64,000 nt of DNA from Candidatus Omnitrophota bacterium (GCA_003528115.1 DOGZ01000014.1:166081-230080); one strand, 5' to 3'. Positions 20,525 to 58,174 are shown, counted from the stretch's first letter. Made by a program: numbers and translations. Notes: generated by a model from the sequence alone, not told the origin.

Positions 20525-20534
20525 AAAAAGCAGG

Positions 20535-22498: not shown

Positions 22499-22499
22499 A

Positions 22500-24547: not shown

Positions 24548-24578
24548 GAAAAATTTCCAAAGATTTCTCTATTCTTAA

Positions 24579-24607
24579 TTGACTTTAATTTATATATATA
24601 TAAAAAT
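24579..24607 (+). promoter_or_regulatory. AT-rich sigma70-like promoter candidate (TTGACT-N16/17-TAAAAA) before the gspC-like and gspD genes
   Basis: A 75-nt, very AT-rich spacer ttgactttaatttatatatatataaaaat lies between gspM and the next gene. Confidence 0.25.
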
Positions 24608-24621
24608 AACATCCATATTTA

Positions 24622-25218: not shown

Positions 25219-25219
25219 G

Positions 25220-27151
25220 ATGAGACAGACTATTTTTCCTTTAAAACGGGCGGTTAGAACATTTTACCTCATCGGGCTTTGCCTCCTTTTGTATTTAGGA
25301 GGTGGGATGGATGTTGCGGTTCCTTACTATTCCGATGAGGCGGGTTTCTCCCAAAGGGTTTCCGAGAAAATTATCCTGGATGTTTTGGATTTAAAACAAA
25401 TGGACATCCTGGATGTTCTGAAGCTCATGTCCAAAAAAAGCGGCTTGAATATTGTGGCCGGTCAGAATGTTAAAGGGCGGATATCGATTTATGTGGAAAA
25501 GATGGATGTCGAAGACGCGTTAGAAATCATCGTCGACTCTTATGGATGGGCGTATGAACGGGAAGGGAATATTGTCAGGGTGATGACAAGTCAGGATTAT
25601 GAGAACAAATACGGCCATAAATTCGGTGAAGATTTTGAAACACGCGTCAAACAATTATCGTTCGCCAATACGGCGGATTTACTCGCTGTTCTGAATCAAG
25701 TCAAAAGCAGGTCCGGGAGAGTCGTGGCGGACGACAAATCGAATACCATCATCCTTATGGATACGCCTCAGAAGCTTGACGAAATGGAAATGATCATTTC
25801 CAAGATTGACGTTTCCAAGAAAACGGTTATTTTTGATTTAAGTTATGGTAAGGCTGAGGACGTAGCCAATAAGATTTCGGAATTACTCACCCCCAATGTG
25901 GGTGTCGTGAAGCATGATGAACGCTCGAATAAGATCGCGGTTTCAGACACGTCCGTGAAATTAAAAGACATCAGCCAATTGGTCAAGGCCTTTGACCAGC
26001 AAGATAAAGAAGTTCTGATCGAGGCGAAAATTTTGCAGATCCTTTTAAATGACGAACACAAAATGGGGATTGATTGGGAAGGCATTATTCATGATTTTCA
26101 TGATTTTCATCTTAAGAGCGACTTTGGAATTTTGAGCGATTCCGATAAAGGAGGACGGCTGAGCGTCGGGACGGTCGATGATGATAATAAAACTTTTTTG
26201 ATTGAGGCCCTTAAGAGTATGGGGTTGACGAATAATCTTTCCAGCCCCCGGATAACGGCGGTCAATAACAAAGAGGCCAAGATCCTGATCGGATCCACCG
26301 AACCGTATGTGACCACGACCACCACCACGCCTTCCTCAGGGCCGACCACCACCGCCGAGACGGTCAGTTTTATCGAAGTCGGCGTAAAATTATATGTGAC
26401 CCCGACGATTCATAATGACGGTTTTATCACGATGAAGATCAAGCCGGAGGTTAGTTCCGTGGTGGACAATTTAACAACCAGTAATAATAATACGATTCCG
26501 ATTGTGGACACCTCTGAGGCTGAGACAACGGTCATGGTCAAGGATGGCGCGACTATTGTGATCGGCGGACTCATTAAGGAGGAAAAGATTAAAGCGGAAA
26601 AACAGGTGCCGGTCTTGGGTAATGTTCCTATCTTGGGCTATTTATTCAAAAGCAAGACAGATTCCGTGCAAAAGAATGAAATTGTCATTTTCTTGACGCC
26701 AAGAATCATTAGCGGGGATGTGGAAGGTCGGGAAGAGACGCGCGCGAGCTCAAAGCCGCCTTTAAGGCAAAACAGCGTTAATCGAAGGGGACGTATCCTG
26801 GAGCCGGTGACGTCTCGTCGGAATTTAGCCTCCCCTGCGCCTCAAACAGGGGTCATGGCTAACCCGGCGTACAGAAATTATAGTCAGGTCATTCGGCAGA
26901 TGATCAGCCAGCGCGCGCATTTTAATGTGAATCGTCAAATGATTGAACCCGGAGAAGTGCGTTTGTCTTTTATTTTGGCGTCTAACGGCAGATTGAAGCA
27001 AGCCAGCGTTGTCGAAGACAAAACCTCCGCCAGTACGCGTTTGCAGAGTATAGGGTTGAAAAGCCTGCAAGAGTCTGCCCCGTTCCCCCCATTCCCGAAA
27101 GGTCTTAACTATTCAACTTTAAGTTTTAATGTGGTCTTGTCGTTTGATTAG
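25220..27151 (+). CDS. gspD: Secretin GspD family
   Basis: The N-terminus is a signal peptide. N0/N1-like domains are present. The secretin C-domain motif is VPVLGNVPILGYLFKSK…IVIFLTPRII. ATG 25220 lies 2 nt after the upstream stop. Confidence 0.85.
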   Translation: MRQTIFPLKRAVRTFYLIGLCLLLYLGGGMDVAVPYYSDEAGFSQRVSEKIILDVLDLKQMDILDVLKLMSKKSGLNIVAGQNVKGRISIYVEKMDVEDALEIIVDSYGWAYEREGNIVRVMTSQDYENKYGHKFGEDFETRVKQLSFANTADLLAVLNQVKSRSGRVVADDKSNTIILMDTPQKLDEMEMIISKIDVSKKTVIFDLSYGKAEDVANKISELLTPNVGVVKHDERSNKIAVSDTSVKLKDISQLVKAFDQQDKEVLIEAKILQILLNDEHKMGIDWEGIIHDFHDFHLKSDFGILSDSDKGGRLSVGTVDDDNKTFLIEALKSMGLTNNLSSPRITAVNNKEAKILIGSTEPYVTTTTTTPSSGPTTTAETVSFIEVGVKLYVTPTIHNDGFITMKIKPEVSSVVDNLTTSNNNTIPIVDTSEAETTVMVKDGATIVIGGLIKEEKIKAEKQVPVLGNVPILGYLFKSKTDSVQKNEIVIFLTPRIISGDVEGREETRASSKPPLRQNSVNRRGRILEPVTSRRNLASPAPQTGVMANPAYRNYSQVIRQMISQRAHFNVNRQMIEPGEVRLSFILASNGRLKQASVVEDKTSASTRLQSIGLKSLQESAPFPPFPKGLNYSTLSFNVVLSFD

Positions 27152-40356: not shown

Positions 40357-41178
40357 ATGCCTCCAACGCAGATTAAACACTCCTTTCCGTCTTTTGCCGC
40401 GTGGTACGCGGGGAAGAGCGCTTTGGTCACGGGTGCAACGTCGGGCATCGGGAGGGAGATGGCAAGATTATTGATTCGTTATGGGGCCAGAGTCGTGTTT
40501 TGCGGTCGTGAGGAAACGGCGTTAAAATCGCTTGACGAAGAATTAAAAACGCAATCAACGATTCCCCCCGAAGGATTTTGCGTGGATTTGTCCCAGCCGG
40601 ATTCTTTGAAGTCCTTCATCCATAAAATTCGTCAAAAGTATACCATTGACATCCTTGTCAACAATGCCGGGCTGGGATATATGGGGGATTTCTGCAATAT
40701 GCCGGAGAAAATGCTTTTGTCCCTGCAGGACGTGAATATGGCCGCGGTTGTCCGTTTATGCCATGCCTTTTCTTCTGACATGAAAGAGAGGCCGGGGACG
40801 GGGATATTGAATGTCGGTTCCGTCGCGTCCTTTTTCCCGACACCAGGTTCAGCGTTATATGGCGCCACAAAACATTTTATTCTGGGTTTTACCGATGCCT
40901 TGCATCAAGAGATGGCGCCTTTTCAGGTGCATGTCAGTGGTGTTTATCCGGGAAAGACCGCTTCCAGATTTCTGGAACGGGCGACCGAAGGAAGATTGAA
41001 GGTGTGGGAAAAGTCGTCCAGACCCGAAGATGTGGCCCGGCTGGGACTTCAAGGCTTAATGAAAAATAAGATTAGGACCATTCCTGGTTTGGATAATCAG
41101 ATAAAGGTTTTGATGGCTTCTGTTTTACCGGTTTCCTTCACTCTGAGAAAAATGGCAGCCCGCCATCCGCGTCAGTAA
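40357..41178 (+). CDS. Short-chain dehydrogenase/reductase (SDR)
   Basis: Motifs are ALVTGATSGIGREMA, NNAG and the catalytic YGATK. Confidence 0.8.
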   Translation: MPPTQIKHSFPSFAAWYAGKSALVTGATSGIGREMARLLIRYGARVVFCGREETALKSLDEELKTQSTIPPEGFCVDLSQPDSLKSFIHKIRQKYTIDILVNNAGLGYMGDFCNMPEKMLLSLQDVNMAAVVRLCHAFSSDMKERPGTGILNVGSVASFFPTPGSALYGATKHFILGFTDALHQEMAPFQVHVSGVYPGKTASRFLERATEGRLKVWEKSSRPEDVARLGLQGLMKNKIRTIPGLDNQIKVLMASVLPVSFTLRKMAARHPRQ

Positions 41179-41218
41179 ATGTGCTTTTTTTGAAATGCGA
41201 GTGGGGCATTAGTTTTAA

Positions 41219-41445
41219 GCCTTAAGGGAATATGCCCGAGGCGAGTTCCGGAGCCAACAGGCCTCTTCAGGCGGATGAGTCCGACGATCCGTCGCTCAAA
41301 CAGTCTTCGCGGCGCGGCTATTTCTTAAAGAATTTGTTGTAAGCCGCTTGCTGCGGAACTCGCTTGGGGATCCTTGGACTCATCCGCGTCCAGAAAGGGC
41401 TGTTGTACGAGGACTGTCTGAGCCGCGGGCATATTCCCTTAAGGC
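41219..41445. repeat. Perfect 20-bp inverted repeat (GCCTTAAGGGAATATGCCCG / CGGGCATATTCCCTTAAGGC) enclosing ~187 nt with two further imperfect complementary pairs; structured leader or MITE-like element
   Basis: The left arm is at 41219-41238 and the right arm at 41426-41445. The inner pairs are GGCGGATGAGTCC (41270) / GGACTCATCCGC (41376) and AGGCGAGTTCCG (41239) / CGGAACTCGCTT (41355). The element lies 64 nt upstream of the first radical SAM gene. Confidence 0.5.
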
Positions 41446-41508
41446 GTATTTAAGGTTACCCATGTGTAATTTCAAAGAACCGAAAATATAATCAAAGGTT
41501 ATGGACAG

Positions 41509-42618
41509 ATGAAGATCAACAGATGGACACGGTGGATACAAACGTTTCATTATCCCTCGTATTTTATATTTTTTGTGACCGCCCGCTGTAACGCCCGATG
41601 TCCGATGTGCTTTTATATGGAGAATATGGAAAGCAACGCGGCGAAGCGGGAGTTGAGGGTCGAGGAATATGAAAAGATCAGTCGCAGTATCCCATTGATC
41701 AATATCCTGGGTATTTCCGGCGGGGAACCGTTCTTGAGAGAGGATTTGCATGAGATTGTTCAGGTGATGTATAAAAACTGCTCGCCCTGGGTTGTTGATC
41801 TGCCGACCAATGGCTTTTTAACAAAAAGCGTGCTCAAACAGGTGGAAGAGATCGCACGGCGTTGTCCGGATATGGTGGTGGATCTCCAGCTTTCCATAGA
41901 CGGGCCGCCGGAGATCCATAATCAGATCCGAGGGCTTAAGGATGGGTTTGGCCGTATGCGCGAGACCTATCTGGGCTTGGTGGCGCTCAAGAAACGCTAC
42001 AGGAATTTGAAGGTCAAGGCCTGCGTGGTGTATTCGCATTATAACCAGGATCATATAGAGCCATTATTCGACATGCTTCACAGCGATTTTACGGATTTGG
42101 ACAGAATCGTTTTCTCCGTGGCGCACGGAAGCGTCTACAACGATGAAGCCATGGCTTTTGATTGGGAAAGGTATTTCAAGAACTGCGCGCGGATCCGAGA
42201 GGCGTCGACAGTAAAAGACATTAAAGATCTGCATTCGATTTTTACGATAGCCTTGAGAATTGTCAAAAATGATTTGCTTAAAGAGATCCTCCGGAAAAAA
42301 AATATGGTTCAATTATGCGGGGCCGGTCAAAAGGTTGTTGTGATTAATGAGCTTGGTCAGGTGTTTCCTTGTGAACCGCTATGGCGGCCCGTGGGGGATT
42401 TGACAAAGAATGGGTATGACCTGAATCAAATCCTTCGATCTGAGGCCATGAAACAATTCCAGGATCAAATCGTCCGGGAGAAATGCAACTGCCATTGGGG
42501 GCTGCCGATGTCCACCGCGCTCATTTATAGTCCCAGGTATTATCCGAAGATTTTGTTTGAAATGACAAGGATCTTATCCAGGAGTTTATTCCGCTCAAAA
42601 AAAATGGAAAACTTCTAA
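41509..42618 (+). CDS. Radical SAM enzyme with C-terminal SPASM/twitch-like Cys cluster
   Basis: The motif is CNARCPMC (CxxxCxxC). A GGEP-like ISGGEPFL is present. C-terminal cysteines occur in CGAGQ…PCEP…CNCHWG. Confidence 0.8.
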   Translation: MKINRWTRWIQTFHYPSYFIFFVTARCNARCPMCFYMENMESNAAKRELRVEEYEKISRSIPLINILGISGGEPFLREDLHEIVQVMYKNCSPWVVDLPTNGFLTKSVLKQVEEIARRCPDMVVDLQLSIDGPPEIHNQIRGLKDGFGRMRETYLGLVALKKRYRNLKVKACVVYSHYNQDHIEPLFDMLHSDFTDLDRIVFSVAHGSVYNDEAMAFDWERYFKNCARIREASTVKDIKDLHSIFTIALRIVKNDLLKEILRKKNMVQLCGAGQKVVVINELGQVFPCEPLWRPVGDLTKNGYDLNQILRSEAMKQFQDQIVREKCNCHWGLPMSTALIYSPRYYPKILFEMTRILSRSLFRSKKMENF

Positions 42619-44131: not shown

Positions 44132-45184
44132 ATGAAGAAATACGTTAATTATATGACGACCCTTATGAAAGGGCATTGGCTCCGGATCAATATGCCTATT
44201 CTGGTGACGCTCTGCGTGACCAATAGATGCAACCTCAAGTGTTTTTATTGTTACGAAGAATATTATGACAGGAATCACCGGGAATTTACGACGGAAGAAA
44301 TATTCAGGCTTATCGATGAGCTGGTTCAGATGGGGACCAAATATATTTCCATCGGAGGAGGGGAAGCTCTTTTAAGAAAAGACATTGGACAGATCGTTGA
44401 CAGGATCAAGCAGAGAAATATTTTATGCCATTTAAGCACAAACGGGTTGATTGTCAAAGATCATGTGCCGGTTTTAAAAAAGGTTGATTCTCTGGCAATT
44501 AGTATCGACGGCCGTTTGGAAAGTAATGACTTGAACAGAGGCAAGGGGACGTTTCGTAAACTCATCGAAGCCTTTGAGATCTTAAACAAAGAGAAGATTC
44601 AATTCCATTCCCACACGGTGCTGACGAGAAATAATAGCAATGCCGTCGAAGAGCTCATGGTTTTAGCCCGCGCCTATCATTTTCAAGCCCAGTTCAGCCC
44701 GTTGAGAGTTGAGGATTCTCCGGACAAAAGTCTTGGATTAGACGATATTCAGTTAAAAAAGATGATTCAAAAAATCCTAAAGCTTAAAAAACAGGGGGCG
44801 CCTGTTTTCTTCTCCGCCAAGACTTATGAAAACTTTTTGAACTGGCCGTTCCCGGCGTCGAAACAGTTCGTCTTTAATGAAAGTATTAAAGGCTATAAAC
44901 CCATCAAATGTTATATCAAGAATTTTGCCTGCCACATTGAGGCCAACGGTTTGGTCTATCCCTGCATTGTCTTAGTGAACAAATTCAAGGCGCTGAATCT
45001 TTTGGAGGTCGGTTTTCAGAAGGCATGGGAAAATTTGGCTGAAAACGGATGCCGGGCCTGCAATAATATTTGTTGTAATGACCTGAATCTTATCTTTGGT
45101 TTTAATCCCGATTCTATCTGGAATGCCCTGAAAATTGTCGTAGGTCGATTGACGGATAAATCAAGCGCTCCGTCTCTAAAATGA
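44132..45184 (+). CDS. Radical SAM/SPASM-domain enzyme
   Basis: Motifs are CNLKCFYC and GGGEALL. The SPASM cysteines are CYIKNFAC…PC…CRACNNICC. Confidence 0.8.
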   Translation: MKKYVNYMTTLMKGHWLRINMPILVTLCVTNRCNLKCFYCYEEYYDRNHREFTTEEIFRLIDELVQMGTKYISIGGGEALLRKDIGQIVDRIKQRNILCHLSTNGLIVKDHVPVLKKVDSLAISIDGRLESNDLNRGKGTFRKLIEAFEILNKEKIQFHSHTVLTRNNSNAVEELMVLARAYHFQAQFSPLRVEDSPDKSLGLDDIQLKKMIQKILKLKKQGAPVFFSAKTYENFLNWPFPASKQFVFNESIKGYKPIKCYIKNFACHIEANGLVYPCIVLVNKFKALNLLEVGFQKAWENLAENGCRACNNICCNDLNLIFGFNPDSIWNALKIVVGRLTDKSSAPSLK

Positions 45185-48090
45185 AAATGACCCTTAAAAA
45201 TTTAATTCTCCGTCTTCTTTTCAGCCTTCCGTTTATCGCCGCAGTTTTTTATTTAAAAAGTTATCATGGCGAGCTCATCAATAATGCCGAAGTCCAGTGG
45301 CAGTACTTGCAGAATTCCAAGGGGAAGATTTTCTTGGGCTTGGATGTTTACGCGCCATCCGGCATAACCATTCAAGAAATTTCTTCTCATCCATGGGACG
45401 TCACTCAATCATGGAAATTGGTGAACTATCCGGATTGGTTTAAGGGAGATGAGAATTTTGAGCGTTTCCCCGTTTTTAAGCAACTCGTTCATCCGTACCT
45501 TTCGACCCTTTATCATGAAAATGTCCTGTTGACGTCAGGGTTAGATCCAGGGAAGGGATGGTACACGTTTTTGTATGAATGGAATCCCGCGGATTCCCGG
45601 TCTCTTCCGCCGGAAGACTCTCTCAGAATCCGGTATAAAAATGCGGGCACGCAAAACATCTATGACGCCGAAAAGATCAGCGCGCCAAGGATCCTGAGTG
45701 CCGGGGGAGAGCTCAGAGATAAAAAGCCTTCCTTGAAATTTGAAGTCTTATATCCCATGTCTCACGCGGCAAGACAGCCTGGAGAAAACACAGAGGTTGT
45801 TTTAAATAATTTGTTGCCGGACGACGCGGACGCGTTTCAATTAAAAGATCTGAATCGTCATGGATATAGCGTTGTCCTGCGGAACAAGGATGGGGTTGTT
45901 CTTGACACGCTTGAGGGTTTTGTCATGTGGGATACGCACGCAGTCGGGCAAGTCTTTATGAAACGGCAAGCATCGGATGATGTTGGGGAAAATACAGGGG
46001 GGACAGACTTCACGGTTTTAGGGAGACATGCCACGCTGGTTATTTTTATAATATATTTTGTCATCATCCATTGGTTCATCGGCGCGAGGTTTGCCCGTTG
46101 GCGGGGTATTGATTTAGACGGCGAGGCCTCGAAGATTGTATTACCAGTTTTTCTCGGGCTTGTTGTGTCCACGTATTTATTTTTTGTCCTAGGGTTCATA
46201 CAAGGGCTCACCTTCCCGATCATCTTTGGGGTTTTATTGGTGATCTACCTCACAGGATTCATGGAAGAGCCCTTCTTCCTTGTGAAGAGAATTATAGGAC
46301 TCGAGTTGAGAAAGGCCTTACAACAGCCGTGGCGAGTCATTTTTTTGCTTTTGTTAGGGTGGGGACTCTATCAAAATTTTGTTTATTGTTTTTTGCCTTC
46401 TACGTACGCGGATGGATCCGGGGATATTGAGAATTCGTATTTGCCTAATTTGGATTATTACATGATCACCCATAGTTTTAAAGTCCCTATCCAGAATTCA
46501 ACGACGGGAATTCATTCTCAAACGTTTGATGTTTTAAGAACGATCGTGAAGATTTTGGCTGGAGAGGCGGGAGTTTACTTATTATCTTTTGTTTACTTGG
46601 CGCTCGCCCTCGGAAGTATGTATTTGATAGCAAAGAAAATATTTCGCACAAAAAATCTGCTGATCTATATTTCAGTCTTGCTTCTGTTGTCGGCAAATCT
46701 TTTCACGGAATTGATCCATTTCGGGAAAATTCATATTGCCGCCTTAGCGTTCTTGTTAGCCGCGTTACTTTGTATGAGTTCGGAAGATTTAAAGAAAAAT
46801 TATATTTTACCCGCGGTTTTTTTAGGGGTGATTGCGTCGCAATATGTTTATTTTCTTGGTTTGGGGGTGGCGTACTTCGTGATGATCGGCGTTCACGCGT
46901 TTGTTCAGCACAAGGAATTCAGGCCGCGCGTCCTGAAACCCTTGTCAGGTGCTTTTCTATTGTTTTTGATCCTGAGCGCAGTATTTAATTTAAAACTTAT
47001 CATGGAAGTCGGCACCTTTGTCCCCCCGGGCATTTCCCCGGAGTGGATGAGTGATTTCTTCTTAAAAATGAATTCAGAGAATCCGCGATATCATTTCATT
47101 GATAATAATTATATAAGGCATTTTTATAAATATCATGGCCTCGCGAATTTTGGTCAAGCGATGACACTTTCCACCCTCATGGATAAAGTCATTCAGACAA
47201 CCAAGAACCTGAATTTTTATGTGTTATTATTGTTTCTCCCCTTGTTGAAGAAGTTCGATGTGTCTAAAATGTATTATATGATTATGAGCGCGGTTCTTGT
47301 TCTATTATTTGTGACGATCTTCCCTAACGCTCCCCGGTTAAGTATGTTTTATTATTATCCTGTCATTATTATTCAATGGGCGATTATCGATAGCCTTATA
47401 TTTAGAGTAGAGAAAATAGTGCCCATTAAAAGTTTAGATGTAAAAAGTCGAATGATATACGCAGTGGTGGGTTTGGTTTTATGCGTGGTCATTTTTGATG
47501 CGCCGGGCTCAAGAATTGAAATAAGAAGAGCGGCTTTTTTAAATACTATGCGCAATCCTTTACATGTGGAAGGGCTATTTAATGAGGCCCAGAGCGTTTT
47601 CTGGGGGAGGGAGTCTGCCTACGATTATTTACAAAAGATTCAGACCGATCCCGAGATGTTTCCAGGGACAAGATTCGGGGCGCATCGAAACTTTGATTAC
47701 GCGATGCTCATCCGGCAATACACCCGTGTCGATGACATGATCCTGACGGTGCCGGTGAGGTTTCATTCTCATGCCATGAGGCCTTTGACGGCCAGACACG
47801 CCCTGGGGAGTGTCCTATATCAGCTTGATGTGAAGAAAATCATGGATGATTTGAAGAAACTGAATATCCGTTATCTGTCCGTCATGCCGATCCATTACCG
47901 GGATTACAATCCGTTTTATACGCCTGTTTTTGAGGACCAAATTTTTTTTAAATACTTTAAACCGCTCTTCAGTTATAATGGCACAACATTTTATAAAATA
48001 ATTTACGATGGGAGTCATGAAGAATACACCTCCACGCCTTATAATGTCAAAGGATACCCTTTTGTTCCCATGATGGCAGAAAGGAGATAA
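45181..48090 (+). CDS. Large polytopic membrane protein (969 aa): signal/anchor, ~250 aa extracytoplasmic domain, >12 TM helices, ~250 aa C-terminal domain; function unknown (possible glycosyl/lipid transferase)
   Basis: It has a long ORF with an ATGA overlap upstream and a 2-nt gap downstream. The hydropathy pattern supports this topology. No motif was recognised. Confidence 0.7.
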   Translation: MKMTLKNLILRLLFSLPFIAAVFYLKSYHGELINNAEVQWQYLQNSKGKIFLGLDVYAPSGITIQEISSHPWDVTQSWKLVNYPDWFKGDENFERFPVFKQLVHPYLSTLYHENVLLTSGLDPGKGWYTFLYEWNPADSRSLPPEDSLRIRYKNAGTQNIYDAEKISAPRILSAGGELRDKKPSLKFEVLYPMSHAARQPGENTEVVLNNLLPDDADAFQLKDLNRHGYSVVLRNKDGVVLDTLEGFVMWDTHAVGQVFMKRQASDDVGENTGGTDFTVLGRHATLVIFIIYFVIIHWFIGARFARWRGIDLDGEASKIVLPVFLGLVVSTYLFFVLGFIQGLTFPIIFGVLLVIYLTGFMEEPFFLVKRIIGLELRKALQQPWRVIFLLLLGWGLYQNFVYCFLPSTYADGSGDIENSYLPNLDYYMITHSFKVPIQNSTTGIHSQTFDVLRTIVKILAGEAGVYLLSFVYLALALGSMYLIAKKIFRTKNLLIYISVLLLLSANLFTELIHFGKIHIAALAFLLAALLCMSSEDLKKNYILPAVFLGVIASQYVYFLGLGVAYFVMIGVHAFVQHKEFRPRVLKPLSGAFLLFLILSAVFNLKLIMEVGTFVPPGISPEWMSDFFLKMNSENPRYHFIDNNYIRHFYKYHGLANFGQAMTLSTLMDKVIQTTKNLNFYVLLLFLPLLKKFDVSKMYYMIMSAVLVLLFVTIFPNAPRLSMFYYYPVIIIQWAIIDSLIFRVEKIVPIKSLDVKSRMIYAVVGLVLCVVIFDAPGSRIEIRRAAFLNTMRNPLHVEGLFNEAQSVFWGRESAYDYLQKIQTDPEMFPGTRFGAHRNFDYAMLIRQYTRVDDMILTVPVRFHSHAMRPLTARHALGSVLYQLDVKKIMDDLKKLNIRYLSVMPIHYRDYNPFYTPVFEDQIFFKYFKPLFSYNGTTFYKIIYDGSHEEYTSTPYNVKGYPFVPMMAERR

Positions 48091-49181: not shown

Positions 49182-50714
49182 ATGAAGGTGACACTGATTC
49201 GACCGCCGGTTTATAGTGTGGGTCTCATGGGACCTCAGCTCGTGCCAGTCTTGGGGATCGCCTACATCGCGGCGGCTATTCGCGAGGCCGGGCATGAAGT
49301 CGATATCGTGGATATGTGCGGCGAGGCGATCGACCGTTCCGAGATGGTCAACGGGAAATACGTTCAGTACGGCATGACTCCGGCAACCCTTAAAACACGC
49401 ATTCAATTTGCCGACGCCATTGGGTTCGCCTGTATGTTTTCACAGGATTGGCCTTTTCATCGGGGATTAATCCAGTACGTCCGGGAGCTATTTCCTGAGG
49501 CTGTTCTTTTTGCCGGCGGGGAGCATATTACCGCCTTGCCGGAGTTTTGTTTGGAAGATTGTCCTTCGCTCGATCTGTGTGTTCTTGGGGAAGGGGATGG
49601 CGCGATCGTGGATTTGATCCATATGCTCGATAAAGAAGGATCTTTATCTGAAGCGCCGAGCCTGGTTTATCGCGACAAGAACGGCGGGTACGCGCGTACG
49701 AAAAGAGCGGAACGCATTGGGAATATCGATGCGCTTTCCTGGCCGGCCTGGGATTTGATCCCGATGGAAAACTATCTTTCCCGGGGGCTGACGTATCATT
49801 TGAAGCGGGGGCGGACTATCCCGATGCTGGCGACCCGCGGGTGCCCGTATCATTGCTCATTCTGCTCCAATGAGAATATGTGGGGCCGTCGGTGGTTGCC
49901 GCGGGACCCGAAATCCGTTGTGGATGAGATGGAACACTATATCAAGATTTATAAGGCGGAGAATTTTGTTTTTTCCGATCTGACCGCCGTCATTTCCCGG
50001 GAGAGTATTGTTTCTTTATGTCAGGAGATTCTTCGTCGGAAGTTACGGATTACCTGGCAGCTCCCGACGTTGAGAACGGAATCTCTTGACGCGGAGGTCT
50101 TGCGGGTTATGTACGCGGCCGGATGCCGTGAGCTGGATTTCGCCCTTGAGTCCGGTTCAACCGACGTGTTGAAAAGTGTGGACAAGAGAAACGACCCTAA
50201 AAAGATATGTTCCTTAATAAAAGACGGTTTAAAATTGGGCATGAATTTAAGTACGAATATTGTGATCGGGTTGCCACAGGAGAGGTTTAGAGATTTTCTT
50301 AAAACGTATGGGTTGATGATGAAACTGGCCGTCGCGGGGCTGCAAGAATTGAATGTGTTTCCGTTTGTGCCCTATCCGGGATCGCGATTGTTTAAAGAAT
50401 TTCTGGAACAGAAAAAGATTAAACTCGGAGATGAGTATTTCATGAAGCTTTTCGGGTACGCGGATCTCAGTAAGGCCGTGTCCTGGTCGGCGCACTTTGG
50501 GCCGAGGACATTGAGCGGGATGAGGTTTGGTCTTTTGAGCAGTTTTTATAGCCTCATGCTGATCTCGCATCCGCTGCGGATGCTCCAATTGTTCATCAAT
50601 CCCGCGCGCGGACGGGTCAATACAAAGCTCGAGGGTGTTTTGCAAAGGGTATTTAGAAATATCCAAATCACGTTTAGGAAATCTTCGCGGATTAAACTTC
50701 ATCAGGACATTTAG
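49182..50714 (+). CDS. Class B radical SAM enzyme with N-terminal B12-binding-like domain
   Basis: The N-terminus is KVTLIRPPVYSVGL…LGIAYIAAAIREAGHEVDIVD. The rSAM core is ATRGCPYHCSFCSNE. Confidence 0.8.
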   Translation: MKVTLIRPPVYSVGLMGPQLVPVLGIAYIAAAIREAGHEVDIVDMCGEAIDRSEMVNGKYVQYGMTPATLKTRIQFADAIGFACMFSQDWPFHRGLIQYVRELFPEAVLFAGGEHITALPEFCLEDCPSLDLCVLGEGDGAIVDLIHMLDKEGSLSEAPSLVYRDKNGGYARTKRAERIGNIDALSWPAWDLIPMENYLSRGLTYHLKRGRTIPMLATRGCPYHCSFCSNENMWGRRWLPRDPKSVVDEMEHYIKIYKAENFVFSDLTAVISRESIVSLCQEILRRKLRITWQLPTLRTESLDAEVLRVMYAAGCRELDFALESGSTDVLKSVDKRNDPKKICSLIKDGLKLGMNLSTNIVIGLPQERFRDFLKTYGLMMKLAVAGLQELNVFPFVPYPGSRLFKEFLEQKKIKLGDEYFMKLFGYADLSKAVSWSAHFGPRTLSGMRFGLLSSFYSLMLISHPLRMLQLFINPARGRVNTKLEGVLQRVFRNIQITFRKSSRIKLHQDI

Positions 50715-50715
50715 C

Positions 50716-51531
50716 ATGAAAGATAACTTAAATTTTTTAAAAGATAAAGCCCGTCAGGTTCGAGGCAAAGTTCTGGAGATGACGGCCGCGGCCGGTAAAG
50801 GGCATCTGGGCGGAGCTTTTTCTTGTACGGAAATCTTGGTGGCGTTGTATTACGGCGGCATCTTGCGTCTGGATGCTTCTCGTCCCCGCTGGGAGGGGCG
50901 CGACCGGTTTCTCTTGAGTAAAGGCCACGCGTGTGAGGCGTTGTATGTTATTCTCGCGGACTTGGGATTCTTTCCCGGAGGAGAATTGGAAAATTACAAT
51001 AAGCCCGGGTGTTTACTGGGAGGGCATCCTAACCGGAGTATCGCGGGGATAGAGGCGGACACAGGATCCTTGGGACACGGCCTTGGGATCGGGGCTGGGT
51101 TGGCCCTGGCAGCCAAGATGGATCAAAAGGATTTTAAGACGGTTGTTTTGTTAAGTGACGGCGAGTGTTGTGAAGGATCGGTATGGGAGGCGGCGATGTT
51201 TGCGGCCAAACATAAGTTGAATAATCTGATCGGTATTGTGGACAAAAACGGGCTTTGTGTCACAGACATCATTGAAGATTGCGTGGCCTTGGATCCGCTG
51301 GATAAAAAATGGATCGCCTGTGGCTGGGAGGTTGTTGAAATGGATGGCCATTCGTTCGACGATCTTCTTACCGCCTTTGAGCGAGTTCCCTCAGATAGAC
51401 CGCGGATGATTATTGCTGACACGGTGAAAGGCAAGGGCGTCTCTTTTATGGAGGGCAACATCGCATGGCATCACGGCGTGCCTAAAGGGGAATTGTTGCA
51501 GCAGGCGAGAAAAGAACTGGAAATCATTTGA
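50716..51531 (+). CDS. Transketolase, N-terminal (TPP-binding) subunit of a split transketolase
   Basis: Motifs are GHLGGAFSCTEILVALYY and GSLGHGLGIGAGLA. ATG 50716 lies 2 nt after the upstream stop. Confidence 0.85.
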   Translation: MKDNLNFLKDKARQVRGKVLEMTAAAGKGHLGGAFSCTEILVALYYGGILRLDASRPRWEGRDRFLLSKGHACEALYVILADLGFFPGGELENYNKPGCLLGGHPNRSIAGIEADTGSLGHGLGIGAGLALAAKMDQKDFKTVVLLSDGECCEGSVWEAAMFAAKHKLNNLIGIVDKNGLCVTDIIEDCVALDPLDKKWIACGWEVVEMDGHSFDDLLTAFERVPSDRPRMIIADTVKGKGVSFMEGNIAWHHGVPKGELLQQARKELEII

Positions 51532-52529
51532 ATATCCGTATGACATCATCGGACAAAGACCTCAGAGACGCTTTTTTTGACGAGCTGTATGCGATCGCCC
51601 GTCAGGATCCGCGGGTGATCCTGCTGACGGCGGATATGGGGGCCCATAGTCTGGGGCGGTTTAAGAAAGATCTGTCCCGGCAATATATCAATGTCTGCGT
51701 GGCCGAACAGAATATGATCAGCGTGGCGGCGGGTCTGGCGTTGGGCGGAAAAAAAGTTTTTGTATATACGATTATTCCCTTTGCCACGATGCGTTGTTTC
51801 GAGCAGATTAAGGTTGATGTGTGTTGTATGCGTCTGCCGGTGACGGTTGTCGGGATCGGGACAGGATTGACGTACGGCGGTGACGGGCCCACCCACCACG
51901 GAATTCAAGATATCGCCGTGATGCGCAGTCTCCCGGAAATGACTATTTTGAATCCCTGCGATGCCGTAATTACACAAGCCGCAGCCCGATTGGCCTATGA
52001 ACAACAGGGGCCTGTGTATGTTCGGTTGGAAAGAGGGCGGTTCCCCTTGATTTACGGTGCTGGGTCCGCGGATTTCTCGAGGGGTTTGCACCAGATCAGG
52101 GAAGGAGAGGATATAACGCTCATCGCTACCGGGAATATGGTCCATCGGGCCGTTGAGGCCGCGGATATCCTGAGGAAGAAATTTCTATCCGTCCGTGTGG
52201 TGGATGTGTATAGGATTAAGCCTTTGAATACGGCTTTGTTAATAAAGATGATGGAAGGGACAAAGGGCGTTGTGACACTCGAGGAGAATTGTTTGACCGG
52301 CGGGTTGGGTTCGGCGGTGAGCGAGGTTTTATGTGATTCCTGTAAGGGGATTGCGCTTAAACGTCTGGCCATCCCGGATGAACATTGTTTTGCCTCCGGT
52401 GACCGTGAGGCGCTTCAGCAGTTATATCAATTAGATGTGTCCAATATCGTGCATTCCATTGTGAGGTGGTTTCCTCAACGGGCGGAGCATGTTTTCATGG
52501 AAGGGAAAGAAGATGGATTTAGGCATTAA
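51528..52529 (+). CDS. Transketolase, C-terminal (pyrimidine-binding + C-domain) subunit
   Basis: The segment ILLTADMGAHSLGRFKKDL…NVCVAEQNMISVAAGLALGGKKVFVYT is present. It has an ATGA overlap with the N-subunit. Confidence 0.85.
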   Translation: MNIRMTSSDKDLRDAFFDELYAIARQDPRVILLTADMGAHSLGRFKKDLSRQYINVCVAEQNMISVAAGLALGGKKVFVYTIIPFATMRCFEQIKVDVCCMRLPVTVVGIGTGLTYGGDGPTHHGIQDIAVMRSLPEMTILNPCDAVITQAAARLAYEQQGPVYVRLERGRFPLIYGAGSADFSRGLHQIREGEDITLIATGNMVHRAVEAADILRKKFLSVRVVDVYRIKPLNTALLIKMMEGTKGVVTLEENCLTGGLGSAVSEVLCDSCKGIALKRLAIPDEHCFASGDREALQQLYQLDVSNIVHSIVRWFPQRAEHVFMEGKEDGFRH

Positions 52530-53298
52530 AGGGAAATACGCGTTGGTGACCGGGGGGACGCACGGGATCGGACGGGCGATTGCCCTGGCATTGGCCGATG
52601 AGGGATGTCATGTTGCGGTGTGTTCAAGAAGCAGGGAGCGTGTGGAGAAAACAAAACAGGAGCTCTCCGCCAAGGGCGTGCAATGTTTAGGGGTGGAAGC
52701 CGATGTCATGAAGGACTCTGATATCGAGAAGGTTATGAGTCTGGTCGGCAGACAATGGGGAACTCTGCATATTTTGATTAATAACGTCGGTGGCGGTGGC
52801 CGCTGGGGAAGTGAAATCGTTGAAGAGACCAAAGAGGAAACATGGCTGGAGGTCTACAACAAGAATGCCTTGGCCGCGATGAAATTTACTATGCGGACGA
52901 TCCCCTGGATGCGCAAGCAGAAATGGGGACGGGTTGTGACGATCACGTCGATCTTCGGCCGAGAAGCGGGCGGGCGGCCGTGGTTTACGATGGCCAAGAT
53001 GGCGCAGACGGCCTTGATGAAGACCCTGGCCAAGAAGGCGTATTTGATTCAAGACGGCATAACGTTTAACAGTGTCGCCCCCGGGGCCATTATGATCGCC
53101 GGGACGGGTTGGGAAAAAGAACTTAAGGAAAATCCCCGGCAGGTGCAGGATTTTATCCATGAAGAACTTCCTTTAGGCCGTTTGGGAACGCCTGAGGAGG
53201 TGGCCAACGCGGTTGTCTTCTTATGTTCGCAACAGGCGAGTCTGGTCAACGGCGCTTCGATTCCTGTGGATGGCGGACAGAGCATGAGTGTTCTTTAA
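52513..53298 (+). CDS. SDR-family oxidoreductase (FabG-like)
   Basis: Motifs are YALVTGGTHGIGRAIA and NNVG. It lies in the Y/K catalytic region. Confidence 0.8.
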   Translation: MDLGIKGKYALVTGGTHGIGRAIALALADEGCHVAVCSRSRERVEKTKQELSAKGVQCLGVEADVMKDSDIEKVMSLVGRQWGTLHILINNVGGGGRWGSEIVEETKEETWLEVYNKNALAAMKFTMRTIPWMRKQKWGRVVTITSIFGREAGGRPWFTMAKMAQTALMKTLAKKAYLIQDGITFNSVAPGAIMIAGTGWEKELKENPRQVQDFIHEELPLGRLGTPEEVANAVVFLCSQQASLVNGASIPVDGGQSMSVL

Positions 53299-53301
53299 AG
53301 G

Positions 53302-53344
53302 AGTACTTTGTAACCTAAATTTCTGAATTGTGGAACAAAGTACT
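53302..53344. repeat. 10-bp perfect inverted repeat AGTACTTTGT…ACAAAGTACT with 23-nt spacer, immediately after the SDR stop (operator or internal terminator/attenuator candidate)
   Basis: It is seen directly in the sequence. A short partial T-tract (tctctcggattttg) follows. Confidence 0.4.
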
Positions 53345-53382
53345 TCTCTCGGATTTTGTAAAAAAATTGTTCAGAAAATAAT

Positions 53383-54078
53383 GTGACAATGGTGGAGGAT
53401 CCTGCGATTAAAGTTTCTTTGATTATTTTTACCTTAAACGAGATCGACGGCATGAAGGTGATTATGCCGCGGATCAGGAAAGAATGGGTGGATGAGCTCA
53501 TTATCGTTGACGGCGGATCGACGGATGGGACGGTGGCTTATGCCCGGGAACAGGGCTATTTTATTTTTACTCAGCAGGAGAAAGGCGCCGGCGCCGCGTT
53601 TTTGGAATCCGTGGCTAAAGCGACAGGAGATATCGTGATCGTCTTCAGCCCTGACGGAAACTCCGTCCCTGAAAAGATTCCGGAATTAATAGCGAAAATG
53701 AAACAGGGCTATGATATGGTGATTGTCTCCAGGTATCTGGGGGGCGCGAAAAGCTATGACGACGATTGCGTCACCGCTTTTGGGAACCGCTTGTTTACCG
53801 CCTTAATCAATATATTGTTTGGAACCAGGGTCACGGATTCCTTAGTCATGTATCGTGCCTTTAAGAGAGAAATCGTTCAGGATCTTAAAATCAATACAAA
53901 GACCGTCTCCTGGGGAACCCAGTTTTTGGCCAGGGCGGCAAGGAAGAAGTTAAAAATAGGTGAGATCCCCGGCGACGAACCGCGCCGCATAGGAGGCGTG
54001 AGAAAGATGCATCCTTTAAAGAACGGCTTGAGCGAACTGTTCATGATCCTGAGAGAATTTTTAAACGGGGGATCCTGA
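53383..54078 (+). CDS. GT2 glycosyltransferase, polyprenyl-phosphate sugar synthase (DPM1-like)
   Basis: The N-terminus VSLIIFTLNE…ELIIVDGGSTDGT is present, with the DxD-like motif FSPDGN. Confidence 0.75.
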   Translation: MTMVEDPAIKVSLIIFTLNEIDGMKVIMPRIRKEWVDELIIVDGGSTDGTVAYAREQGYFIFTQQEKGAGAAFLESVAKATGDIVIVFSPDGNSVPEKIPELIAKMKQGYDMVIVSRYLGGAKSYDDDCVTAFGNRLFTALINILFGTRVTDSLVMYRAFKREIVQDLKINTKTVSWGTQFLARAARKKLKIGEIPGDEPRRIGGVRKMHPLKNGLSELFMILREFLNGGS

Positions 54079-54079
54079 A

Positions 54080-55066
54080 ATGGGATTTTATGAGAAAAGA
54101 ACTGTCCTTGTTACGGGCGCCACAGGGTTGGTGGGGGCCAATCTGATTCAACGGCTGTTGCCCTTAGGCGTTCATGTCCGGGCCACGTTGCATCGCCGAG
54201 ATCCGGTCATTAGCGATCCTAAGATTGATTATATAAAGTGTGATTTGACCAATCCGGATGACTGCCGTAAGATTGTGCCGGAGGTGGATTATGTTTTTCA
54301 TTGCGCGGCTAATACTTCCGGGGCTCATGTGATAACGAACAACCCCCTGACGCATGTGACGACCAATATTGTGATGAACGCCTATCTTTTGGAGGCGGCT
54401 TATCAGGCGAAAGTCTTAAAATTTTTGTGGATCAGCAGTTCGACGGGATACCCATCGACCGGCACCCGTCCCATGAAGGAAGAAGAAATGATGGTCGGCG
54501 ATCCTTTTGACAAATATTTCGGTGTTGGATGGATGAAAAGGTATTCAGAAGTCCTTTGCCGGATGTATGCCGAGAAGCTGAAAGTCCCCATGGCCACCAT
54601 CGTCTTGCGCGCGACCAATATTTACGGCGAATATGATGATTTTGATTTTGAAACATCCCATGCCTTCGCGGCGCTTATTAGAAAAGTCGCGCAGAGGCAT
54701 CGTCCGATTGAAGTGTGGGGCACGGGTGAGGACGTCAGGGATTTGATCTATGTGGGTGATTTCATTGAGGCGATGCTTATCGCCATGGAGAAATGTTACG
54801 GGTACAAGGTCTTTAATATCGGGTTTGGCCGAGGGTACAAAATCAAAGAAGTTCTCAATATGATCCTGGAAGAAGACGGTTATCATGATGCGCGCTTAAC
54901 CTTTGATGCCACCAAACCCACGACGATCCCGATCCGGCTGGTGGACATCCGTAAGGCGGAAAAAGAGCTTGGTTTTAAACCCAAGACTTTTCTGCGGGAA
55001 GGGATCCGGAAGACCTTGCATTGGTATAAGGCGCATCAAATGGAGAAAGCGGAGAAGGCGGCATGA
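54080..55066 (+). CDS. NAD-dependent epimerase/dehydratase family (NDP-sugar modifying)
   Basis: The Rossmann motif VLVTGATGLVGANL is present. The SDR-extended fold length is 328 aa. Confidence 0.8.
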   Translation: MGFYEKRTVLVTGATGLVGANLIQRLLPLGVHVRATLHRRDPVISDPKIDYIKCDLTNPDDCRKIVPEVDYVFHCAANTSGAHVITNNPLTHVTTNIVMNAYLLEAAYQAKVLKFLWISSSTGYPSTGTRPMKEEEMMVGDPFDKYFGVGWMKRYSEVLCRMYAEKLKVPMATIVLRATNIYGEYDDFDFETSHAFAALIRKVAQRHRPIEVWGTGEDVRDLIYVGDFIEAMLIAMEKCYGYKVFNIGFGRGYKIKEVLNMILEEDGYHDARLTFDATKPTTIPIRLVDIRKAEKELGFKPKTFLREGIRKTLHWYKAHQMEKAEKAA

Positions 55067-56688
55067 AGGTATCCATTCAAGAAACCCCGTCACACCTGCC
55101 TCGGTCCGAGGCCTTCGCCGGGGGGAGAAAAGTTCCTTCATTGAAAACAAAAGAGGACCGTGTGGATGTGGTGTTTATTTATCCCAAGACGGGGATAGAT
55201 TTAGGCGCTACGATCGGCCCGCCGCACGCCCTATTATCTGTGGCGGCGCCTCTTTTAAAAAAAGGATTCAAAGTCAAGATTGTCGATCAACGCACGGACG
55301 CGCATTGGCGTGAAACCTTAAGCGGGATGTTGGCGCAAAGGCCGATTTGTGTCGCGTTGACCTCCATGACCGGCACGCAGATTTATTTCGCGTTAGAAGC
55401 CGCTAAACTTGTGCGAGAAGTCTCCAACGGAAAGATCCCTATTGTCTGGGGCGGGGCGCATCCGTCCAGCCTTCCGGAACAGACTTTGAAAAGCGAATAT
55501 GTGGATGTGGTGTGTATCGGCGAAGGGGATATCACGTTCTTGGAATTGGTGCAGGTGTTGGCGAATAAAGAACCGTTGGATCAGGTCAAAGGGATTGTCT
55601 TTAAAGACGGCGTCAAAATGACCATGACTCCGGGCCGGCCTCTGCTGGACGTGGAGACACTCCTGCCCGTGCCGTGGGAATTGGTGGACGTTGAAAAATA
55701 TATCCACAGGGATTTCTACCTGAAAGAAACCCGGCGGAGTCTGGATATCGGCCAGACCTCGCGGGGGTGTCCATTTCAATGCGGATTTTGTTCAAGCGCC
55801 GCGTTGCGCCACAGGCAGTGGCGTCCCATGTCGGTCAAGAGATCTCTGGAGATGATCCTCGAACCGGTCAAGAGATTCCATCTGGATGGTATTTGGATTC
55901 GGGATGATGAGTTTTACATCGACCGGGAGCGGGCCTACGAGATCTGTCAGGGCATTATTGACAGCGGCGTTAAAATCAAATGGTATACTTCTGGGACGCG
56001 GGTAAATATTTTTAATATGGCCACGGACAAAGACCTCGATATCCTCAAAAGAAGCGGCGCCGACACATTGAAGTTTGGGGCCGAATCCGGCTCGAACAGG
56101 ATTTTAAAATTGATGAAGAAAGGGATCCGTTGTGAGGATACCATTGAGGCGAATCTCAAGGCCAAGAGACACGGCATTATCCCTGTCTTTGCCCTCATGA
56201 TTGGATTTCCAACGGAAACATTTGAAGATATCGACAAAACGATTGATCTGTTTGTCCGGTTAAAGAAGGATAATCCCAAGGCCCAGTTTGAAATTATAGG
56301 AACATTTACGGCCATGCCCCAGACGCCGCTTTACGAGGTGGCTTTACAGCACGGGTTACATCCTCCGCAATCGTTGGAAGGCTGGATTGATTGGCTTTCG
56401 GATGAGTATGATATGGAAGGAAAAAAAATCCCGTGGTTTAACGCTTCGGAGAGAAAGAAGATCGGTAACATCACTTATATGAGCCTTTTGGCCAACAGTT
56501 CTTTGAACGCGATCGGCGGGGTTTCTAACAATGCTATGAGGCTTCTCTTAAAATTGTTTATTAGTCCGCTGAGCCGGTATGAGGGGTATAAACTCAGAAG
56601 AAAGTTGTATGGTTTTTCTCCGGAACTGGATTTCATGCGGTTTCTGCGACGAAAAGTCTTTTACAGGCGGAATCAGAGTATTCATTAG
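55063..56688 (+). CDS. Class B radical SAM enzyme with N-terminal B12-binding-like domain
   Basis: The N-terminus VDVVFIYPKTG…LLSVAAPLLKKGFKVKIVD is present. The rSAM core is GQTSRGCPFQCGFCSSA. It has an ATGA overlap with the epimerase. Confidence 0.8.
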   Translation: MKVSIQETPSHLPRSEAFAGGRKVPSLKTKEDRVDVVFIYPKTGIDLGATIGPPHALLSVAAPLLKKGFKVKIVDQRTDAHWRETLSGMLAQRPICVALTSMTGTQIYFALEAAKLVREVSNGKIPIVWGGAHPSSLPEQTLKSEYVDVVCIGEGDITFLELVQVLANKEPLDQVKGIVFKDGVKMTMTPGRPLLDVETLLPVPWELVDVEKYIHRDFYLKETRRSLDIGQTSRGCPFQCGFCSSAALRHRQWRPMSVKRSLEMILEPVKRFHLDGIWIRDDEFYIDRERAYEICQGIIDSGVKIKWYTSGTRVNIFNMATDKDLDILKRSGADTLKFGAESGSNRILKLMKKGIRCEDTIEANLKAKRHGIIPVFALMIGFPTETFEDIDKTIDLFVRLKKDNPKAQFEIIGTFTAMPQTPLYEVALQHGLHPPQSLEGWIDWLSDEYDMEGKKIPWFNASERKKIGNITYMSLLANSSLNAIGGVSNNAMRLLLKLFISPLSRYEGYKLRRKLYGFSPELDFMRFLRRKVFYRRNQSIH

Positions 56689-56704
56689 AAAGGGAATAGA
56701 GGCG

Positions 56705-58174
56705 TTGAATCCAAAAATTATCCTCGCCACGGTAAATTCGAAAAGGGATCTTTATGCCGCGACAACGGATGAGTTTTCAGCCGTTGCTCCGAATATTCAG
56801 ATGGGGCTCTTGGCGTCTTACGTGAAGTCCCGGGGTATCGATGTCGAGATCATCGAATCCGACGTGGATATGATCTCGATGGATCAACTGCTGGATATCG
56901 CCCAGAAGAAGAGTCCTACGCTTTTGGGGATCATTTGTTCAGGGGCCAATCCCTCTTCCTCCACCATGGTCATGGCGGGTATCGTGGATTTCTTTGAGAG
57001 GTTTCATCAAAGGAAGATGAATGTCAAGACATTCATTTGGGGGCCGCATCCGACGGTTCTTCCGGAGAGGTCGTTAAAGGAAACGGGCGCGGATTTTGTG
57101 GTCAGAGGCGAAGGGTACACAACCATCGTTGATCTGTTTCACGCTTTGCGGGACGGCGGAGATTTGGAGAAAATCAGCGGCCTGGCTTATTGCGTTAAGA
57201 ACGGGGCGGTTCAAGAGCCGGCTGTGATTGTGACACAAGACACCCCTTTGATCAAAGATCTTGACAGCCTGCCGCCGGTTGACTGGGACGTTATGCGTCC
57301 GTCCCGTTATCGGGCGCATAACTGGCATTGTTTCGGAGATCTCCATCATCGAACGCCCTATGCTATTCTCTGGACCAGTTTCGGATGTCCGTTCCCCTGT
57401 AATTTTTGTTCCATCAATAATCTCTTCGGTAAAAGGACTCAACGGTTTCGCAGCGTTGACCGCGTGATTGACGAAATCAGCTTGCTGGTTCAAAAATACA
57501 AGGTTAAACATATCAAGATATTGGATGAATTATTTGTGGTTAACTCTAAAAGAATAGATGAATTTTGTGACAAGCTCGAGGTCAAAGGATTTGACTTGAA
57601 TATGTGGGCGTATTCCAGGGTGGATACGATCAGCCGGCCTTTGCTTAAAAGGCTCAAGAAGGTCGGGATGAATTGGATCTCGTACGGATTTGAATCCGCG
57701 ACACCGGAGATTTTAAAGACGGCGGATAAAGGGAATCAAAAGACGGATGTGGATCAGGTGATCCGTATGACCCAGGAGGAAGGGGTCTCGATATGCGCGG
57801 ACGTCATGTTCGGTTTGGAGGGCGAGAATGAAGAGACGATGAACCGCACGTATGATTTCCTTGTTAAATACAATTTTGAATGGGCGAATATTTATCCGGT
57901 CTTTGCTTATCCGGGGACGAAATTCTTTCGAGAAGTCGAGCCTCCGAAGAACTGGAAGGCTTATTCCCTTTACGGGTATGAATGCGCGCCGATGGCAACG
58001 AAATATCTTACCTCCAAAGAGGTGCTCAAATTCCGTGATGAGGCCTTTGTCCGTTATCATGGCCGTCCGGAATACCTGTGGATGATCGAGAAAAAATTTG
58101 GGGTCGATACCAAGGAACATATCTTAAGAATGATCGCCATTCCCTTGAGAAGAAGGTTATTGGAGAATGAGTAG
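56705..58174 (+). CDS. Class B radical SAM enzyme with N-terminal B12-binding-like domain
   Basis: The probable start is TTG 56705 (LNPKIILATVN…), preceded by agagg. The B12-like domain reads MGLLASYVKSRGIDVEIIESD. The rSAM core is WTSFGCPFPCNFCSINN. The ORF track starts earlier, at 56579. Confidence 0.75.
   Translation: MNPKIILATVNSKRDLYAATTDEFSAVAPNIQMGLLASYVKSRGIDVEIIESDVDMISMDQLLDIAQKKSPTLLGIICSGANPSSSTMVMAGIVDFFERFHQRKMNVKTFIWGPHPTVLPERSLKETGADFVVRGEGYTTIVDLFHALRDGGDLEKISGLAYCVKNGAVQEPAVIVTQDTPLIKDLDSLPPVDWDVMRPSRYRAHNWHCFGDLHHRTPYAILWTSFGCPFPCNFCSINNLFGKRTQRFRSVDRVIDEISLLVQKYKVKHIKILDELFVVNSKRIDEFCDKLEVKGFDLNMWAYSRVDTISRPLLKRLKKVGMNWISYGFESATPEILKTADKGNQKTDVDQVIRMTQEEGVSICADVMFGLEGENEETMNRTYDFLVKYNFEWANIYPVFAYPGTKFFREVEPPKNWKAYSLYGYECAPMATKYLTSKEVLKFRDEAFVRYHGRPEYLWMIEKKFGVDTKEHILRMIAIPLRRRLLENE

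Follow-up and report, generated by a model that had tools for sequence, protein, structure and literature searches.

The 64,000-nt stretch of Candidatus Omnitrophota DNA analysed here (hereafter the window) carries an unusual cluster of radical-SAM (rSAM) genes, whose first member is separated from an upstream SDR gene by a 330-nt intergenic region containing a perfect 20-bp inverted repeat. The original prediction had offered two readings of this region: an rSAM operon leader acting as an attenuator or riboswitch, or a small non-autonomous mobile element (MITE). The question is whether the region is a regulatory RNA dedicated to these genes or a sequence that was inserted in front of them. 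On the basis of the current results, we assign a probability of roughly 0.78 to the reading that a non-autonomous mobile repeat has been inserted here, between genes that lie next to each other in relatives. The palindromic repeat family represented by this feature is a previously undescribed, low-copy, MITE-like family of a Candidatus Omnitrophica genome, and no described MITE family for this uncultivated lineage was found in the literature.

Genomic surroundings

The rSAM cluster (window 41509-62221) contains seven or more radical-SAM genes, of which four have B12-binding domains, together with a split transketolase, two SDRs, a glycosyltransferase and an epimerase. Two large proteins of the cluster, of 969 aa (45181-48090) and 801 aa (58167-60572), had no Pfam match. 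Other Omnitrophica loci likewise combine the rSAM gene with several of these gene types, and one homolog of the first rSAM gene carries the label Firestonebacteria. Nearly all genes of the 64-kb window lie on the + strand. Two tandem sets of type II secretion/type IV pilus-like genes (4633-12623 and 15671-27151, same strand) include T2SSE, T2SSF, pseudopilins, PilM/N/O and secretin. An AbiEi/AbiEii toxin-antitoxin (abortive infection) pair was observed about 1-2.6 kb upstream of the window start (L019 7371-9005), just before the response-regulator/histidine-kinase pair at the left end of the window.

Extent and architecture of the element

A repeat search of the window placed GCCTTAAGGGAATATGCCCG at 41219-41238 (+ strand) and its exact reverse complement at 41426-41445. 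The predicted perfect 20-bp inverted repeat is thus present, and far above chance: dinucleotide-preserving shuffles of the window gave 0 expected matches with three mismatches allowed. These arms could be lengthened to 27 nt at 93% complementarity (41216-41242/41422-41448). The same search also recovered the two inner complementary pairs that had been described, one at 41264-41290/41368-41394 (81% over 27 nt, with a 14-bp helix core) and one at 41235-41254/41350-41369 (85% over 20 nt, with a perfect 10-bp core at 41241-50/41354-63), and the two do cross one another. Beyond the 20-mers, an outer complementary pair, TTTTTTGAAAT/ATTTCAAAGAA, was found at 41186-96/41469-79. The features of the locus are as follows (copies B and C are described in the next section):

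40357-41178, + strand: upstream SDR gene (adh_short), Pfam match; its stop lies 4 nt before the element
41175-41182, + strand: putative left copy of an 8-bp target-site duplication, GTAAATGT, which includes the SDR stop codon (41176-41178)
41183-41481, + strand: copy A of the repeat over its full 299 bp, non-coding and imperfectly palindromic, defined by homology with copy B
41183-41218, + strand: left outer arm with the terminal inverted repeat GCTTTTTTTGAAAT, pairing with 41454-41479
41219-41238, + strand: left arm of the perfect 20-bp inverted repeat, pair probabilities 0.99-1.0
41241-41250, + strand: off-axis 'crossing' segment GCGAGTTCCG, perfect complement of 41354-41363
41271-41290, + strand: inner stem, left side (GCGGATGAGTCCGA.GATCC), pairing with 41368-41387 at probabilities of about 1.0
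41354-41363, + strand: partner of the off-axis segment, CGGAACTCGC, from repeat search and fold
41368-41387, + strand: inner stem, right side, from repeat search and fold
41426-41445, + strand: right arm of the perfect 20-bp inverted repeat, from repeat search and fold
41446-41481, + strand: right outer arm with the terminal inverted repeat ATTTCAAAGAACC, pairing with the left outer arm
41482-41489, + strand: putative right copy of the 8-bp target-site duplication, GAAAATAT, 6/8 identical to the left copy
41509-42618, + strand: downstream radical-SAM/SPASM gene, Pfam match; its ATG lies 27 nt past the element

The element had been taken to be 227 nt long, bounded by the 20-mers. Alignment with the other copies supported an element at this place and revised its size: homology with copy B begins at 41183 and ends at 41481, so the unit is 299 nt (nhmmer E = 9e-113). 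The terminal inverted repeats GCTTTTTTTGAAAT and ATTTCAAAGAACC pair with each other, and their complementarity runs inward through the perfect 20-mer. The two halves are imperfect inverted copies from the termini to the apex, with ends of the type GGTTCTTTGAAAT...ATTTCAAAAAAAGC and a terminal consensus of G[C/G]TT[T/C]TTT(T)GAAAT. Past the right end, a three-codon mini-ORF, ATG GAC AGA TGA (41501-41512), overlaps the rSAM start.

Two further copies and their host genome

By using an exact 20-mer scan of JGI metagenome contigs, we identified two further loci, each with both arms and with the 207-nt spacing kept, on two contigs of a single groundwater metagenome. Copy B (L007 5272-5570) is 299 nt long and 97.3% identical to copy A (98.0% for its counterpart at L014 9671-9969). 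Copy C (L008 149-409) is 261 nt long and 88.5% identical. The perfect 20-bp arm is unchanged in all three; the left outer arm (41183-41218) is common to copies A and B and not recognisable in copy C, and the right outer arm (41446-41481) is common to all. Homology between the copies ends abruptly and the flanks are unrelated. Extra copies elsewhere had been named in advance as the observation that would speak against a dedicated riboregulator, and two of them, in unrelated surroundings, have now been found.

The contexts are different in kind. Copy A lies between the SDR and rSAM genes. Copy B lies mid-operon, with a histidine-phosphatase (cobC-type) gene on one side and cobU-cobT-cobS on the other, and copy C is upstream of a class-III aminotransferase/cytidylyltransferase/NeuB-type synthase cluster. 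The operon of copy B is headed by a canonical cobalamin riboswitch (RF00174, L014 3905-4042, + strand, 68 bits), which is followed by genes for a TonB receptor, Peripla_BP_2, ABC, FecCD, cobC, cobU, cobT, cobS and cobO; copy B is 5.6 kb downstream of the riboswitch.

The locus of the window is on MHFX01000014.1 and copy C is on MHFX01000009.1, both of which belong to the MAG GCA_001804395.1, whose proteins are labelled Candidatus Omnitrophica. The contig of copy B lies outside this MAG. Its tetranucleotide correlation with the window was 0.975, compared with 0.97 between the two halves of the window and 0.55-0.68 for other Omnitrophica loci, and all three copies are present in the Logan run SRR6482412. 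Copy B was assigned to the same genome because of this tetranucleotide signature and the co-occurrence in one run. The assemblies themselves also reflect the repeat. The Logan k=31 contigs break at 41239 and resume at 41430, exactly 30 nt from the A/B SNPs at 41209 and 41460, and the Logan contig of copy C begins 30 nt before its first distinguishing SNP. Such distances indicate that the assembler merged the interior shared by the copies, which is repeat-like behaviour.

The conserved core of copy C lies at or close to the end of four independent assemblies: three end 123-171 nt upstream of it and the Logan one ends inside it. The stretch before copy C (L016 1-171; L017 1-123; L008 1-148) is AT-rich and contains two TTACGTAA palindromes; it shares no homology with the left outer arm seen in copies A and B. 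Unassemblable sequence, perhaps another repeat or IS, probably lies just beyond it. A candidate for a displaced left end, TTGAAATTAC, 120 nt upstream of copy C, was dropped because 12% of shuffles matched equally well.

Copy number appeared to be very low. No further or more diverged copies beyond the three loci were detected in 438 kb by blastn with word size 7 and nhmmer --max; more copies were absent from about 115 kb of this genome and from about 18 kb added to the contig of the window. The 20-mer and a degenerate right-end pattern gave 0 matches each in GTDB representative genomes, patterns of the 20-mer type and the right-end type gave 0 in viral contigs, and only a 25-nt chance match was obtained by blastn against plasmid and phage collections.

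Probable signature of insertion

A trace of insertion was observed at copy B, which is flanked by a perfect 8-bp direct repeat, ATAATTTT (8/8). When copy B and one of these repeats were removed in silico, a 212-aa cobC was obtained, whose TGA overlaps the cobU ATG (ATGA). The insertion of copy B destroyed this overlap, which is a typical coupled junction. At the protein level, copy B replaced the last five CobC residues (reconstructed ...NNNFITLRP*) with nine that are encoded by the element (...NNNFAFFEMRVGQ*; L007 5257-5301).

The signature is less regular at the other two sites. The flanks of copy A, GTAAATGT and GAAAATAT, match at 6 of 8 positions, though copies A and B differ by only 2%. 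With copy A excised, the SDR stop would be 23 nt from the rSAM start, and the predicted empty site is GTAAATGT joined straight to AATCAAAGG. Copy C has no recognisable left outer arm and no clean duplication, because its left end has diverged. The chance of finding such flanking repeats was about 1e-4 for copy B and 0.02 for copy A, both being rough estimates from flank composition. The right flanks of copies A and B also share ATGRACAGA about 20 nt outside the element, past the putative target duplication. This is probably a chance similarity of ribosome-binding and start-codon context; the cobU start region at copy B (L007 5593-5605) reads ATGAACAGAATGA.

The SDR-rSAM junction in relatives

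The rSAM operon leader had been regarded as the regulatory entry point of the cluster. Orthologous loci do not agree with such a view. In the nearest rSAM relatives (67-69% identical), the SDR stop lies 7 nt before the rSAM ATG (L009), the SDR gene overlaps the rSAM gene (L013), or an NTP_transferase gene overlaps it (L011). The SDR orthologs are full length, with 57% identity in L009 and 54% in L013, and nhmmer found no trace of the element in these three loci. Since the rSAM gene abuts or overlaps an upstream gene in relatives, the spacer is specific to this lineage; and since it directly follows that gene, it is not the first gene behind a leader there. The element thus sits between genes that are adjacent in relatives, and conservation at orthologous positions, which would be expected of a functional RNA, was found in none of the three clusters. 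It should be noted that these element-free sites come from a between-species comparison at 67-69% rSAM identity. Within the species, no empty-site allele was found: all six assemblies that span the junction (the window, L001, L002, L003, L025 and L027) carry an identical copy A.

One more contig is relevant to this count. The 226-kb JGI contig Ga0209211_10000063 matches the window without a difference over 50569-64000 (L022 = window 50569-72221) and should span the SDR/rSAM junction, and it is absent from the 20-mer matches. The scope of the scan is the likeliest explanation, with a scaffold gap or an empty-site allele also possible.

Coding content and the partner transposase

Bacterial MITEs have terminal inverted repeats and target duplications, lack a transposase, form a long stable stem-loop and reach up to about 400 bp (PMC3184786). 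The element described here has 299 bp and contains neither a transposase nor a conserved ORF. Small ORFs were considered and rejected as conserved genes: only short ones are present, their lengths differ between copies, and no ORF is conserved between the copies. Together with multiple copies, sharp boundaries, absence from the orthologous junctions, flanking direct repeats and the lack of a coding or known RNA-family signal, these results favor the second of the two readings originally offered, that of a MITE.

The 64-kb window contained no transposase or recombinase, and about 115 kb of this genome yielded no transposase that could serve as a partner. Nor was an autonomous IS with matching termini found in the window or among plasmids, phages, viral contigs and GTDB representative genomes. 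The termini of the element may resemble ends of the ISL3 or IS6 type, and nothing usable in the literature supported a parent IS family with ISL3- or IS6-like termini and an 8-bp duplication.

Most likely, a transposase encoded elsewhere inserted the element into AT-rich inter-cistron junctions, and 8 bp of target were most likely duplicated in the process. Such an insertion would have split the SDR-rSAM junction, tight or overlapping in relatives, and produced the apparent 330-nt 'intergenic region'. Given that its neighbours are co-directional and lie side by side in relatives, the element is probably co-transcribed. The transcript would then contain an RNA hairpin of about 109 bp with a 20-bp perfect duplex. 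This hairpin would be expected to end translational coupling between the neighbouring genes and could offer a cleavage site for a double-strand-specific RNase (RNase III), as in the Correia elements of Neisseria; the rSAM ribosome-binding site would be left free, outside the hairpin.

Folding of the element and possible selection on the RNA

Predicted folding energies of the 330-nt region were -143.7 kcal/mol for the + strand, with z = -8.9, and -127.7 kcal/mol for the - strand, with z = -7.7. The 299-nt element alone forms one hairpin of 109 pairs (-141.8 kcal/mol). In the minimum-energy fold all helices are on one antidiagonal (i+j = 82658-82665), and the structure can therefore be described as one long nested hairpin, centred near 41330 and with the 20-bp perfect duplex in its lower part.

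Such a structure raises the possibility that the repeat has been domesticated, that is, that the RNA hairpin has been kept because, as an RNase III site within operons, it serves for processing or stability and uncouples neighbouring genes. Several observations are compatible with this explanation. All three copies have the same, sense orientation relative to the downstream gene, are placed between co-directional genes or ahead of them, and leave 22-33 nt to the start codon, with the ribosome-binding site free (at copy A, the stretch AAAGG at 41494-41498). The 20-bp duplex is invariant even in the 88.5% copy, and the fold of the + strand is 7-15 kcal/mol more stable than that of the - strand in each of copies A, B and C. 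Moreover, Correia elements are co-transcribed as hairpins that RNase III binds and cleaves, with altered expression of neighbouring genes (PMC2649163).

However, three copies in one orientation are not significant: a random inserter would give a uniform orientation in 1 of 4 cases, considering orientation alone, and the insertion sites are not independent samples because the genes of the region share one strand with few exceptions. Comparison of copies A and C revealed 2 compensatory changes and 5 one-sided changes that keep the pair versus 13 broken pairs, most of them at the left end, which has diverged. The copies showed no surplus of compensatory changes, three sequences being too few for a formal covariation test. 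The higher stability of the + strand could come from RNA-level selection, from strand-biased C-to-T mutation or from the inheritance of one master copy. The underlying G-U versus A-C asymmetry, considered as a sign of RNA-level selection, proved not to be robust (12 versus 6 in copy A, 6 versus 6 in copy C), and little weight was given to the strand bias since the G-U excess is missing in copy C. We therefore think that domestication is unlikely. The stronger form of the same idea, a mobile RNA-hairpin cassette that this Omnitrophica lineage keeps in sense some 25-30 nt ahead of start codons in long operons, with the 20-bp duplex acting as a portable RNase III processing or stability site, is improbable as well. 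If it were true, the cassette would uncouple the rSAM cluster, cobUTS and the NeuB cluster from their upstream genes.

Other possible modes of spread

A palindromic repeat might also have spread without a DDE transposase, either in a REPIN-like manner through a RAYT/IS200-type enzyme or through gene conversion or recombination. Like REPINs (PMC3116915), the unit forms a hairpin over its whole length, the window offers no transposase as a partner, and the target duplication is imperfect at copy A and unclear at copy C. On the other hand, 299 bp is far above the size of a REP doublet, REP heads of the GTAG/CGTC type are lacking, and the very low copy number is unlike that of REP/REPIN families. 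The perfect 8-bp repeat at copy B and the clean restoration of its ORF point to staggered-cut insertion. We consider this route to be quite unlikely, and the insertion of a MITE-like element remains our preferred reading.

Improbable readings: regulatory RNA and inversion

The explanation that was originally placed first, that the rSAM operon has in its leader a cis-regulatory RNA of its own, an attenuator or riboswitch alternating between exclusive structures, was based on the crossing of complementary segments. A crossing pair does exist, the fold is very stable and the element is directly upstream of the rSAM genes. The pair in question (41241-50/41354-63) has 10 perfect base pairs and is 60 nt off the axis of the hairpin; imposing it raises the folding energy by 13.9 kcal/mol, and in the ensemble the pair has a probability of zero to four decimals. 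The geometry is thus that of a palindrome with one stray match and not of two competing folds, so that the claim of mutually exclusive structures did not survive RNA folding. No Rfam match to the region was obtained at E<=10, and at gathering thresholds a search of the window and two loci yielded the cobalamin riboswitch elsewhere and nothing more. Simple scans revealed no terminator-like or promoter-like (sigma-70) site within the element, although Omnitrophica promoters may differ from the sigma-70 model. The rSAM ribosome-binding site is outside the hairpin and not sequestered, and no covariation could be observed among the three sequences. A switch specific to this operon is also difficult to reconcile with near-identical copies in a cob operon and a sugar cluster, with orthologous clusters that have no leader at all, and with a genome in which a true leader, where there is one, carries a canonical cobalamin riboswitch. 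The reading as a dedicated riboregulator is already largely refuted, and we regard it as highly improbable.

Least credible of all is an inverton, in which a recombinase would flip the 187-bp segment between the 20-bp repeats to switch surface-glycan operons in the manner of Bacteroides capsule promoters: perfect 20-bp inverted repeats do enclose about 190 bp, are common to several copies in one genome and precede glycan-type clusters in two of the three cases, but the interior is itself a palindrome about this axis and would be little altered by a flip, homology between copies runs 36 nt past the repeats on both sides, every assembly (as distinct from reads) of loci A, B and C has a single orientation, the assembly breaks are fully accounted for, at k=31, by SNPs between the copies and not by orientation branching, no promoter-like site (sigma-70 model) is present inside and no recombinase in the window, and copy B is in mid-operon among cobalamin genes.

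Implications

The main value of these results is the correction of the leader reading at an unusual radical-SAM cluster. As the 330-nt 'leader' is an insertion, it should not serve as a place to look for ligand-sensing RNA, nor as a guide to where the operon starts. The repeat has altered the C-terminus of CobC and two translationally coupled junctions, and it breaks short-read assemblies at predictable points. A record of it should be useful for finishing these MAGs or for studying the expression of their operons.

Comparison with known systems

Among known systems, the invertons of Bacteroides capsule loci share with the element inverted repeats of about 20 bp around some 200 bp, an association with glycan operons and the presence of several copies. 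They differ in that a second orientation, an internal promoter and a recombinase were not found for the element, whose interior is palindromic and whose homology extends past the repeats. REP and REPIN sequences are likewise intergenic, palindromic and hairpin-forming. However, REP units measure 20-40 bp and REPINs about 100 bp, and both are high-copy, RAYT-associated and without target duplication, whereas the element is 299 bp long, was seen in three copies and has a flanking 8-bp repeat at copy B.

ERIC/IRU sequences of enterobacteria and Vibrio are similar in being imperfect palindromes over the whole unit, in occupying transcribed intergenic sites in operons and in forming long RNA hairpins. 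ERIC elements are reported to affect mRNA stability. They are about 127 bp long, occur in tens to hundreds of copies and are not known to be mobile; by contrast, the element is over twice as long, has candidate target duplications and bears no sequence similarity to them. Correia elements (CREE/NEMIS) of Neisseria are also small and non-coding, with inverted repeats (about 26 bp), intergenic or intra-operon positions and target duplication, the last of these being putative in the element. They are different in size (100-155 bp), in their hundreds of copies, in the TA duplication, and in having IHF sites and promoter-forming ends, whereas the element has 299 bp, is palindromic throughout, with an apparent 8-bp AT-rich duplication and 3 known copies, and has no promoter-like ends and no sequence similarity to them.

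Finally, although no parental IS was identified and the copy number seen is very low compared with that of generic MITEs, the terminal inverted repeats, direct repeats, stem-loop and size of the element are all like those of bacterial MITEs such as RUP, Nezha and MITEAba12 (Delihas 2011, PMC3184786).
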